A DNA stretch of 64,000 bases, taken from Stylophora pistillata. Lineage: Eukaryota. Under the pieces are notes generated by a model, which was given only the letters and a program-made list of their open reading frames with translations, was not told the DNA's origin and made no database searches. The stretch's first letter is position 1, and each line of letters starts with the position of its first letter. The translations under genes were made by a program, and so were the position numbers. Below, one piece after another: positions 4,201 to 10,200 of this stretch. The stretch covers positions 179,948-243,947 of the forward strand of contig NW_019217855.1 of the NCBI RefSeq assembly GCF_002571385.2. Direction: 5' to 3'.

Positions 4201-7200
4201 TTGTTTCTTAATTGTGGCAAATGATGAAGTTCTCCTTATGCCAGTTCTGCTACTGATATGAAGTGCTGAGAACTGGGAGAGAATCAAACTGATGCTTTCT
4301 CATTCATATTATTTTCCAATCTTTTAACCTTAAGGGTATATTTTTTTAGCCTCACCAGTATGTGACTAAGGTCTCGAGTGAGAACAATGAGCTACAGGCG
4401 TTATCATGCTTCTTCATTTTGGTATTAAGTGGGAGATGTTCAAAAATATACCCACACACTTCTTGCAAAGAGTAGTCACAGAGCTCCTGCTGTGTTAATT
4501 TTCATCCTACCTGCTATATCCAATTCACAGTTATTTTAACCTGTTAAACAAGTTTACCCTTTCACCCCCTAAAGTAAGTGGTATCTAATTTCTCCTTGCC
4601 ATATCACCCCTGAATCAAATGTTACAGTCATGAGAATAAAGGAAATGATCACCACCTAAAAAAAGCTCTTGATTATTCAACAAATTCTCCTTGTCAGGCC
4701 TTAGGAAATGTATAGAGAACAGTATGGAGAATATGCATACTAATGTGAGGGTGGAAAGGGTTAGCAGAACAAGTAAACAAGAAACAGCAATAATAAAGGT
4801 TCATTCTTACCTTCTTATTTTCAGGAGAATTTGAGATCTTGGCTTTTGGACCAGGATTGTAATGATCAATACTCTTTGATTCATGGAGGAGGAGATAAAG
4901 TTGCAATCATGTGGAATACCCAACAGGAACCAATTCTATCAAAAGAGAGACAGGTAAGCCAGCATGAGGGTGAAAAATAGTCAGTGTACAAGCCTTTGGT
5001 CTATCCTGCTGTAGCTTATCCCAGTTCTGAAGCATGAAGCTACCAGGATTATTGATTAAATGTACCCTCTTTACATTTTCCAGGCTTCAATGAAAATTCA
5101 CCTCTAATCACACATACCCCTGGATAAAGAGATGTGCTGTGGTGTGAATTATTGTGTCTAAGGATACCCTAGGGAATCACGTTGTCTTGTTATGTATCTG
5201 TTGATAAAGAAAAAAACTTCACATGGTTAGACTATCATCAAAGAGCCTGAAAGAACTCACCAAAATTTGTCAACTGGGGTAGAAAAATAACTTAGACACT
5301 GAAATAAACCAGCAGTGAATATAGTGGTTTAGTGGGAAAAAGATGGTGTCAGACTGCTGATGGAAAATTCACAGCTAAAATTCCAAATTATTTAGATTTT
5401 TTGTCTAGAAATTAGGTAATGTTTTTTATCTAAATATGGTTTATTTTCAATTCTCTTGCATTTTTCTGCAGAACTGGACTGAAACATATGTGCGTTGGTC
5501 ACCCAAAGGCACGTATTTGGCAACTCTGCATAACCAGGGTATTGCTCTCTGGGGTGGAGAAGAATTCAAAAGGCTTATGAGGTTCAGTCACCCAGGAGTC
5601 CAGCTTGTAGATTTCTCTCCCTGTGAAAGGTGCATATTGCTTGTGTACCAATTTTATCTTATCATTGTTATTTTTAGTTACCGTAGTTATTCGACTATAA
5701 GCCGAGCGATTTTTTCACAAAACTTTACCAAAATCTCGAAAATTTTTAGCGNNNNNNNNNNNNNNNNNNNNNNNNNNNNNNNNNNNNNNNNNNNNNNNNN
5801 NNNNNNNNNNNNNNNNNNNNNNNNNNNNNNNNNNNNNNNNNNNNNNNNNNNNNNNNNNNNNNNNNNNNNNNNNNNNNNNNNNNNNNNNNNNNNNNNNNNN
5901 NNNNNNNNNNNNNNNNNNNNNNNNNNNNNNNNNNNNNNNNNNNNNNNNNNNNNNNNNNNNNNNNNNNNNNNNNNNNNNNNNNNNNNNNNNNNNNNNNNNN
6001 NNNNNNNNNNNNNNNNNNNNNNNNNNNNNNNNNNNNNNNNNNNNNNNNNNNNNNNNNNNNNNNNNNNNNNNNNNNNNNNNNNNNNNNNNNNNNNNNNNNN
6101 NNNNNNNNNNNNNNNNNNNNNNNNNNNNNNNNNNNNNNNNNNNNNNNNNNNNNNNNNNNNNNNNNNNNNNNNNNNNNNNNNNNNNNNNNNNNNNNNNNNN
6201 NNNNNNNNNNNNNNNNNNNNNNNNNNNNNNNNNNNNNNNNNNNNNNNNNNNNNNNNNNNNNNNNNNNNNNNNNNNNNNNNNNNNNNNNNNNNNNNNNNNN
6301 NNNNNNNNNNNNNNNNNNNNNNNNNNNNNNNNNNNNNNNNNNNNNNNNNNNNNNNNNNNNNNNNNNNNNNNNNNNNNNNNNNNNNNNNNNNNNNNNNNNN
6401 NNNNNNNNNNNNNNNNNNNNNNNNNNNNNNNNNNNNNNNNNNNNNNNNNNNNNNNNNNNNNNNNNNNNNNNNNNNNNNNNNNNNNNNNNNNNNNNNNNNN
6501 NNNNNNNNNNNNNNNNNNNNNNNNNNNNNNNNNNNNNNNNNNNNNNNNNNNNNNNNNNNNNNNGTTGAAATTTGTGATCACGTATAAAGAAAACTAATCT
6601 TGGCTTCTCTGCTCTGTAAACTAATCAAGTAATCTCTCATTCAACCGCGGATATTTCTGAGTGTAACGGCCCATCTTTGTGCATTTCGCTGACATCTCGA
6701 GCTCTCCCTTAAAGAGATTTTCTTGATCTTTCCTCTAGCGACTCACTGATGACTGTACTCTCTGGTTATCTCGGAATGTGTTTTCGACGGCAATATTGCA
6801 TTGAAACTCTTTTCTGTTTCGAAAATTTTGCGATCATTTCAGTTTGTTGGAGAACAGAATTCTCTGAATGTGGTCTCGGCTTATAGACGATATTTTTCCG
6901 ATTTTTTTCGTAAAGTTTGCACCGACTATCATGTCTCGCGAGTTTAGGGTCTCGGCTTATAGCCAAGGTCGGCTTATAGTCGAATAACTACGGTATTAAC
7001 TATAAAATACTGCATGAACCAAGTTTATTTGTTAGTTTTACTTCAAATGCATGCTGGACTGTAGCCTTCTACCATGGATATAGCTTTTGGATTGTCACAG
7101 AAGTACTGTTGAACTGGGTCCCAAGCTGTCTCTAATTTTCCAATCCCACCTTGTTTGGATGAAGCTATGTAACATGGAAAACATCCTATATTTCTCAACT

Positions 7201-10200
7201 TTACCTTATGGACATTATTCAACACCGTTTCACAGACCTTTTTAACTTTTTAAAGCAGAATTTGCCTAGGTAGGCAAGGAAGTTGGCTGGAAAGAACTCT
7301 TGAATTAATGTTTTGACACTGCTTCATGTGTGTTACATTTGGAAGCCAGGTCCTACCTGTGACAAATAAGCTAGGTAAAGTAGGTGAAATCATTAAATTT
7401 ATTTTTTCTTTTTTGTGCAGATATTTGGTGACCTTCAGCTCTCTCTCAGACAATCCTGAGGATCCACAGGTATTACAGCACTTTGGGTTTGTCTTTTTTG
7501 TCACACCAGTCCTGTTGCATTTGAACCTCGCATGTTCTGTTCAGTTAGTGTCTGGGGAATCTCCTTTTTTGATGCACACGGCAACAAAATCTTGCCAACT
7601 TTACTTGGTCTCAAGGGAGACTTTATAAATTATTAATCATTTTTGTGATCAGTCTATTGCATTTGATAATTTGTGTGGTTGACTTGAATAAGATCAAACC
7701 AGTTATCCTCTTTTCCAACTCCTTTCTTGCACAGTGTACATTGTCATGATACTGATTTCTTCCCCCCTCTCAGGCCATAGTAATTTGGGAAATACGCACA
7801 GGAGCAAAAAAGAGAGGATTTCTCTGCGGAGATCAATCTCAGTGGCCAGTATTTAGGTAAGGTTGTTTTGTAGTAGCAATGAGAACACACTGTAAGCTGC
7901 AGCTGTAAAGTTAAGTTTGTATCTATCATTGTTATGCTCTATTTCTATAGATGGAGTGCAGAGGGTAAATATTTTGGTCGTTTAGGAGAGGACAGCATAA
8001 GTATATATGAAACACCGGTGAGTTGTCACCTCGTATATTCTCCCTGAAATAGCCTTCTTCATGCAGATATTTTTCCCTTACTTGGCCTTCAGACAGGATG
8101 TTTAGAGTATTCATTATGAAATGTTAAGGCAAGAGAAAACTGTAAAGTAATATTGCAGTGTTCTCACAAGGCCCAATGTGCCTCAATGGGTGCGTTGTCT
8201 TGGCTTTTATTGCATCATCTCAGTTTTCCTTGTGGGAATCCTGCAAGGCTGCAGCCTGGTGAAAACACTGATATTGCCTTTGTCGGACTTTACTCTTTTA
8301 AACCATAACATTAGTGTTCATTTTCTCCACCATGTTTCCTCTGCATTTCCTATGGTATTGACAAGGAGAATTTGTTTGACAATCAAGAGCTTCTTGAATT
8401 GGTGATCATTTTCCTTTTTCCTCATGACTTTTACCTATGATTCAAGGGCAATAGTATAAGGAGAAATTACATAATAGTCACTCAACGGAGTTAGAACTGT
8501 AGGTGGAGTATTTGTTATATGATTAGAACCATCCATGTGTAAAGAACACCTCGGCCGTTTATCACTTTCAGTCAGCTATTAGCAACTAATGAAGATTAGC
8601 AATTAAATAAGACGATGTATGTCCCTGAACATTTTATTTGTGCTTTTCTGTAGTCGTTTGGTCTTTTAGAGAAGAAAAGCTTAAAGATTCAAGGGGTCAG
8701 GTAAAGTAAATAACCTCACATGTATGTCAGTGTTGTAAAAAAAAAAAAAAAAAAACTTAAAAGCATAGTTTTAACCTTAATAGCACTTTGCATTTTTTGT
8801 GCTTGATAGGGAGTTTGCGTGGTCTCCAACAGATGATGTGATAGCATTTTGGGTTCCAGAAAATAAAGACACACCAGCTCGTGTTACCCTCATGGAGATA
8901 CCTAGCAGAAAAGAGATACGAGTTAAAAATCTTTTTAATGTGTCTGAGGTAATGATAATGCAGCTGATTTTACTTGAATAATTGGTGAATATTGCTCATA
9001 AAGCAAATTTTTTTATTCAATGTCTACAGGAATTTAGGGTTTGCAGGGTTTTTTGTCACTGTTATATTATTGGAGAGGAAAGGGGAAGCCATTTTCTCAA
9101 CTTTCAGATTGAAAACTAAACCAGTCGTGACTTGGTTATTCACATTTCCTTGCCTCTCTCCTTGTGTTCATTTTGAGTTCTCATAGACATTTTACATTCT
9201 TTCTTATTAGCCATTGTAAATGTTTTGAATTGGTTTTGGTTTTCTTAATGCATGCTGCAAGTGTTTCCTCAATACAGTTTCTTCATTGTACTGTGGACAT
9301 TTTAGGCAACTGTGAGATAAAAAACATTGACACATTGTCTTGATTTTCTTATTTCATTTCAAAGTTGCAAGTGTCAGTTTTCGGTAGTCTGATGCCATAG
9401 GTAACCAAATGCGACAATTATATTATTCCAATATAACAGTGCAAGTGATGAAGTTCTCCTTTTGCCAGTTCTGCTACTGAATTGAAGTGCTGATAACTGG
9501 GAGAGAATCAAACTGATGCTCAAAACATGAAGTTTTTTCAGCATAAACAGATGTCACTGTAGCGGCAATTTGTTTGAACAGTATTTTGAATTTATTTTGA
9601 TTTCAGTGTAAGATTTACTGGCAACAAAAAGGAGACTATCTAGGTGTAAAAGTAGATAGATACACCAAAAGTAAAAAGGTTGGTGCTTTCTTTTGATGAA
9701 CTCTTTCACTCCCAAGATCTGATTGTTAATTCTCCCCTCTGGCTGCTACACATTTCCTTGTTAATTAGTGACAAGAATTTGGTGTCAAATAAAGATAACC
9801 TCTACCTTGTTAGTTTCAGTATTCTCATGACCTTTTTTCTGGATAATGTAAGGATATTATAAGGAGAACTTACATGTTAATCACTTAGGAGAGTGAAAGG
9901 ATTAACTGTACCCCAAGGCTAAGGAATTTTGGTGGTGAATTTTCATCAACATGGAGTATCTTCTGTTCTTGATGTGTGATATTGGGGTTGTAATCCTTTG
10001 ACCCAATGAGAGTGTATGTGGTTTTTAACTTTCTACCCCCAAGAACTGATTAGTAATTCTCCCGTCCAGCTGTTACAAATTTTTTGCAAATAAGAACAAG
10101 AATTTGGCATTAGGTCAAGGTGAATTGTACCTGATAAGTTTGAATATTCTCAATACCTGTTTGCTCGATATTGTATGGACACTATAGGGAGAAGTAACCT

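Follow-up and report, generated by a model that had tools for sequence, protein, structure and literature searches.

Two probable snR61/U38-type box C/D snoRNA genes in introns of the eIF3b gene of the coral Stylophora pistillata

Box C/D small nucleolar RNAs (snoRNAs) of the snR61/U38 kind have been described from Neurospora, chicken and human. In the parts of the sources available, the D' guide of chicken U38 is placed on A1792 of the large subunit (LSU) ribosomal RNA (rRNA) and its genes in introns 4 and 5 of RPS8 (PMC2653536), human U38 is assigned to LSU A1858 with RPS8 as host (PMC6466398), and Neurospora snR61 is matched through its D' guide to LSU Am1114 (PMC2780460). The present analysis concerns a window of 64,000 nucleotides (nt) from the coral Stylophora pistillata (assembly GCF_002571385.2, contig NW_019217855.1, positions 179,948 to 243,947, forward strand), in which two blocks lie in different introns of the gene for the translation factor eIF3b. 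They are very probably snR61/U38 box C/D snoRNA genes, the predicted guides of 2'-O-methylation at a conserved LSU adenosine, as an earlier note on the window had proposed from its letters. The features concerned are the following, in window positions.

4217..4296, forward strand: snR61/U38-type box C/D snoRNA, copy 1, in intron 4 (boxes, Rfam snR61, rRNA duplex)
Parts of copy 1, forward strand: C box 4221-4227, guide 4240-4251, D' box 4253-4256, C' box 4263-4269, D box 4289-4292
9441..9520, forward strand: snR61/U38-type box C/D snoRNA, copy 2, in intron 11 (boxes, Rfam snR61, rRNA duplex)
Parts of copy 2, forward strand: C box 9445-9451, D' box 9477-9480, D box 9513-9516
1208..15709, forward strand: eIF3b host gene, 20 coding exons, 701 amino acids (open spliced frame with AG/GT boundaries, match to eIF3b chains)

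The two blocks are 80 nt long and agree at 75 positions (94%), with none of the five differences in the 12-nt guide core, the D' box or the D box, while their 20-nt flanks agree at just 4-7 of 20 positions and are unrelated, much as the earlier note had described them. Local alignment scores were 140 and 160, where shuffled sequences reached 36 and 39 at most. Both copies have a C box (ATGATGA/GTGATGA) near the 5' end, a D' box (CTGA), a C' box (GTGCTGA) and, near the 3' end, a D box (CTGA), together with a terminal stem of 3 base pairs (bp); all four boxes that had been claimed are present, C' with one mismatch. When the 398-Mb genome was searched with the DNA itself and with a pattern of boxes plus guide, each search returned these two places and no others, and both intact copies are intronic and on the sense strand. 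The intragenic duplication that had been suggested is borne out by the presence of two copies in one gene.

With the LSU rRNA of the coral's own genome the D' guide forms a duplex of 13 nt (copy 1) or 14 nt (copy 2), each including one G-U pair, at energies of -24.0 and -25.5 kcal/mol, and the next best rRNA site for the guide reaches 9 nt. Both lengths fall in the range of 10-21 nt usual for guides of box C/D snoRNAs. In comparisons with small subunit (SSU) and partial LSU rRNA, 0 of 100 guide shuffles attained the duplex score for either copy. The earlier note had given the guide as 12 nt; its core is indeed identical in the two copies, and the length was put too low. The A in GCAG of the LSU sequence AAGCAGAACTGGC (site G000:C250:38093, minus strand) is the partner of the fifth guide base before D'; it is the adenosine that had been predicted as target.

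The host gene was recognised from an exon model of 20 exons with AG/GT at all internal boundaries and a stop-free frame of 701 amino acids. Exon 6 matches eIF3b chains with an expectation value (E) of 1e-28, the Pfam eIF2A domain falls on exons 16-17, and the protein is 95% identical to Pocillopora eIF3b, which is also its sister in a quick tree of the window protein and 24 others picked among 120 listed; this places the genome with the pocilloporid stony corals. For copy 1 the distances to the 5' and 3' splice sites of its intron are 216 and 529 nt, for copy 2 they are 492 and 87 nt; introns 4 and 11 are the only places within the gene with canonical C...D candidates. Contigs assembled from RNA were compared over positions 3700-5000 in four of 24 listed runs, from libraries of messenger RNA size or of unrecorded kind. 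They join exons 3 and 4 in two of the four runs (a third joins them with extra letters between) and exons 4 and 5 in three. In three runs the copy-1 block lies inside contigs of depth 2.7-4.9 that reach into the intron (4107-4305, 4218-4557 and 4030-4302), and in the fourth no contig covers the block within the region compared. Some of these contigs end close to the 3' end of the snoRNA, which may reflect breaks of the assembly graph between the two copies.

Related copies were sought by a pattern scan of metagenome contigs, which gave at least 127 stretches; 124 loci were analysed, 47 of them short. Across 15 aligned coral-type copies the guide, the TGATGA of box C, the D' box (CTGA in 15/15) and the D box are invariant and the loops variable. 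The terminal and internal stems taken together have 92.6% of their cells paired and two-sided changes at five of nine pairs, above all slid controls; within the 3-bp terminal stem two of the three pairs show such changes in the 15 sequences.

Among Rfam families the best for both copies is snR61 (RF00476), matched over its full length (model positions 1-85), which agrees with the family named in the earlier note, and genome-wide they are the top two of 55 snR61 matches at E<=10, copy 2 being the best. No Rfam family matched at its gathering cut-off anywhere in the window, and annotation by that cut-off misses the two genes, as had been foreseen. The gathering score is a database cut-off and not a biological definition, and a relative in an eIF3b intron that is 73-74% identical (L012) clears that of snR61, with 45.2 against 45.

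Several observations weigh against the assignment of the blocks to this family or against the two copies being working genes. Although the snR61 model, one of two suggested for checking, matches both copies in full, it does so below its cut-off of 45, with 31.7 bits (E 0.22 in 19 kb) for copy 1 and 36.2 bits (E 0.029) for copy 2; the other, SNORD38, lists copy 2 only, at 26.8 against a cut-off of 44, and ranks L149 above it. A stretch whose C box is broken and whose guide is mismatched (L139:1495-1563, G000:C577) reaches 33.9 bits with snR61, so that the score of this model alone does not discriminate. The C' box is one mismatch from canonical in the window copies and canonical at the aligned place in L012, and the folds of the copies fall short of significant stability (z -1.9 and -0.8). 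The covariation of the internal stem comes mostly from the divergent L012, in a structure that was itself built from the alignment used to judge it; a tree of the 15 copies has just one of its 12 branches starred and settles little of their relationships. The metagenome contigs are fragments, which give copies per contig and not per species. Lastly, copy 1 stands far from its 3' splice site. The usual distance of a snoRNA, its optimum, is 70-90 nt, and copy 1 may for that reason be poorly expressed.

Two candidates for further copies were rejected: L139 as an intact copy for the defects just given, the stretch being either a dead copy or a chance match, and L149 as a genomic copy, since it looks like a chance match and its guide has no rRNA match. 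On sequence grounds the block is a predicted coral snR61/U38 snoRNA, for which the guide is stronger evidence than the model score.

Intronic box C/D snoRNAs are released by splicing and debranching, followed by exonuclease trimming to the part protected by 15.5K/Snu13, NOP56, NOP58 and fibrillarin. If the coral RNAs follow this established pathway from intron through small nucleolar ribonucleoprotein to methylation, both would be cut out of spliced eIF3b introns, the guide upstream of D' would pair with pre-rRNA, and fibrillarin would methylate the A that faces the guide base five positions upstream of D'. The stretch preceding box D is probably no guide; with the spacer after box C it makes up a 6-bp internal stem. 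For eIF3b itself the role would be that of a mere carrier, broadly and highly expressed.

It is conceivable, if rather unlikely, that copy 2 alone is active, copy 1 being a recent duplicate with weak expression or in decay. The 529 nt of copy 1 against 87 nt of copy 2, a guide extension one pair shorter, a stronger pairing of the copy-1 guide with its own 3' arm (-13.1 against -7.9 kcal/mol) and the existence of dead copies in eIF3b all fit such a history, but copy 1 retains all boxes, the guide and the terminal stem, and intron 4 of L064 also holds an intact copy, likewise far from the 3' splice site, which suggests long retention there. The self-pairing of guide and 3' arm speaks in itself neither for nor against, three of its pairs being invariant in 15/15 copies. 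A doubtful extension would be that the invariant CUG after box C' masks half of the guide and thereby acts as a built-in brake on methylation in hexacoral U38.

A double guide, in which the segment before box D would direct methylation of a second LSU A as well, is improbable. In both copies a match of 10 nt to the coral's own LSU, with one G-U pair, starts right at box D, but 15 and 6 of 100 shuffles equalled it, and the segment differs in L063, L071, L117, L119, L130 and L012 and is partly paired in the conserved internal stem. A dispersed repeat or small transposon that resembles a snoRNA by chance is a scarcely credible reading of the block, for although the eIF3b introns are rich in dispersed repeats and the block shifts in position among relatives, exactly two intact copies in 398 Mb mean that it is not the genome-wide repeat against which the earlier note had asked to guard, and its sense orientation in eIF3b introns wherever exons are visible, its unvarying boxes and the complementarity of its guide to rRNA largely refute such an origin.

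With the snR61/U38 reading retained, the comparison of introns across relatives that had been proposed revealed a shared host and varying positions. Host counts and intron lists given here are among the matches listed. In 10 of the 124 metagenome loci eIF3b exons flank the snoRNA, which lies in introns 4, 6, 8, 12, 14 or 15; two pairs are duplicates (L063 with L078, and the second copy of L021 with the one in L043), and the 10 loci hold nine distinct intact copies, in introns 4, 6, 8, 8, 12, 12, 14, 15 and 15. Together with the window, seven introns of the gene are occupied (4, 6, 8, 11, 12, 14 and 15). In L071 intron 11 is spanned and empty and a copy sits in intron 12, and in the window introns 8, 12 and 15 have no copy; as these introns are fully spanned, the differences are true gains or losses. 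The exons of nine of the eIF3b loci are nearest to stony-coral proteins. Exon 6 of L012 is 98% identical to a protein placed within the hexacorals, though in neither the stony corals nor the anemones (support values 99 and 88), and this locus probably comes from a non-scleractinian hexacoral. A lineage-specific host, as had been supposed, holds at a broad level, but eIF3b is shared by other stony corals and by this one probable non-scleractinian hexacoral.

A second host is the gene for DDX6/Me31B, whose exons flank the snoRNA in 14 of the 124 loci.

L009 (two copies), L017, L029, L033, L037, L048, L053: U38-type RNA in DDX6/Me31B introns, at several positions
L055, L068, L072, L077, L082, L106, L124: U38-type RNA in DDX6/Me31B introns, continued

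RPS8 exons flank it in one locus (L032); a second RPS8 match was dropped as a non-coding repeat. The remaining 99 loci have no assigned host, and some of them are chance matches; among coral-type loci L073, L094, L109, L119 and L125 have no host visible on the contig. One contig of 4.3 kb (L102-L104) carries four copies of U38 type in a 3-kb stretch; no coding exon was recognised in the intervening sequence, and the host is perhaps non-coding.

Traces of lost copies were found as well, one of them in the window.

11356..11376, forward strand: in intron 14, probably the dead 5' end of a third copy (keeps the terminal stem, a mutated C box and the first part of the spacer, but no guide)

This remnant is identical to copy 2 at 18 of 21 positions, which 0 of 300 intron shuffles reach, and to the intact intron-14 copy of L021/L043 at 19 of 21; its match with model R1 is weak (E 0.3 in 83 kb). 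In L043 a decayed tandem copy lies next to the intact one. As the same RNA occurs in other introns of the relatives' eIF3b, the link to this host is probably old and the intron position turns over; because the placement of L012 depends on one 52-amino-acid exon and a quick tree, the age of the link is probable and not proven. The copies were likely born by duplication within the gene and later lost, which would explain both the seven occupied introns and the broken remnants; with the copy tree unresolved, the order and mechanism of the duplications are not derivable. Somewhat favoured is a wider history, in which U38/snR61 would have entered eIF3b before stony corals and other hexacorals split and hopped through at least seven introns, leaving datable remnants, with a parallel history in DDX6 of other animals. 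If this is true, many coral genomes together would offer an unusually clean natural series for the movement of a snoRNA within its host, and both DNA duplication versus RNA-mediated insertion and the distance to the 3' splice site as a factor in survival would become testable.

Other features of the eIF3b introns include a very abundant dispersed repeat family, which fills several of them and is matched by hundreds of RNA contigs.

4580-4765: stretch of the dispersed repeat family
199-372, 8327-8483, 9697-9899, 10035-10612, 12642-12841: similar stretches

In intron 6 an element at 5681-6993 has perfect terminal inverted repeats of 25 nt with TA on both sides; we take it to be probably a Tc1/mariner-type insertion, and an assembly gap of ~810 nt sits within it. 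A hairpin repeat at 11816-11936 in intron 15 is matched in L021 too, and its matches to microRNA families are far below cut-off.

Intron 18 holds a candidate of the other main type discussed here, the box H/ACA snoRNA.

14873..15013, forward strand: likely SNORA57-type box H/ACA snoRNA, in intron 18 (H box 14937-14942, ACA 15008-15010, two hairpins)

It matches Rfam SNORA57 (RF00191) at E 0.0058 in 19 kb, its 27.5 bits lying below the cut-off of 40, and folds into hairpins of -23.9 and -21.3 kcal/mol around an AGAGTA hinge, with ACA 3 nt from the end; it is present as a single copy. Among the metagenome loci compared, none gave a match to intron 18. Its pockets pair with two uridines of the coral's own 18S rRNA that are 43 nt apart. 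For the 3' pocket this is the best rRNA site (8+5 bp, 16 nt spacing; 11 of 100 shuffles equal it). Against the identification stand the 5' pocket (7+4 bp), whose site is second behind an LSU site and lies 12 nt from the H box where 14-16 are expected, the fact that neither pocket is significant alone, and a genome-wide search with the SNORA57 family, which gave no match at E<=1 and did not return the candidate. Targets of human SNORA57 are given as 1004 and 1045/1046, 41-42 apart, in the available parts of two papers (PMC6984369, PMC8763049). The coral candidate resembles SNORA57/U99 in its two hairpins, its H and ACA boxes and two 18S uridines 43 nt apart, against 42 between the human targets 1004 and 1046; as only one U stands at the second site in the coral 18S, the human double modification at 1045/1046, as described in the part available (PMC8763049), would not apply. 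A SNORA57-type RNA is a reasonably likely reading of these features.

Set beside the described systems, the coral RNAs share with the snR61/Z1/Z11 (RF00476) and SNORD38/U38 (RF00212) families of clan CL00051 the C, D', C' and D boxes and the intronic location, as well as a D' guide that is directed at the same LSU sequence and places its D'+5 position opposite the A, and like chicken and human U38 they occur as two copies in one host. They differ in that host, which is eIF3b and not the RPS8 of vertebrate U38, in scoring under both Rfam cut-offs, and in their 3' half, from which the UACCAAA element of the Rfam snR61 consensus (complementary to rRNA just 5' of the target) is missing, an internal stem standing in its place. 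Human RPS8 also hosts SNORD46. The coral RPS8 gene has a sense match to SNORD46 (L147:2766-2863, G000:C88; 36.5 bits, E 5e-5, cut-off 40), whereas no U38 match was found in its 9-kb region, in keeping with the earlier claim of a host other than RPS8; the metagenome locus L032 has the RPS8 arrangement.

In the available parts of three papers, snoRNA copies in several introns of one host, relocation within a gene and changes of host between lineages are described (PMC2653536, PMC3511168, PMC3412847). The main text of a Trichoplax survey, in the part available, mentions neither U38 nor eIF3 (PMC2655684), and SNORD38, EIF3 and Nematostella are absent from the available main text of a 2026 paper on snoRNA mobility (PMC13736004). 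In the literature consulted in part, no report of an eIF3b host or of a coral U38 was found; either may stand in genome annotations or snoRNA databases. The coral snR61/U38 is ordinary in kind, with a host that is unreported as far as found and a modestly interesting turnover of introns. With two C/D copies and one likely H/ACA RNA, this single gene indicates that Rfam cut-offs miss these cnidarian snoRNAs, and eIF3b and DDX6 join the hosts used by U38; current understanding of ribosome methylation and of snoRNA evolution is unchanged. A close parallel is the cis-duplication and 'constrained drift' of snoRNAs among widely expressed hosts set out in the parts available of earlier work, including work on sponges (PMC2653536; PMC3511168; sponges PMC3412847), to which the coral RNAs conform in occupying several introns, in relocating, in a host that differs between lineages and in having a translation-related host. 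Unlike the cases described there, they comprise a single family that occupies seven introns of its host among hexacorals and has left remnants, and they offer a small test case for constrained drift in which the host gene was kept and the intron changed.

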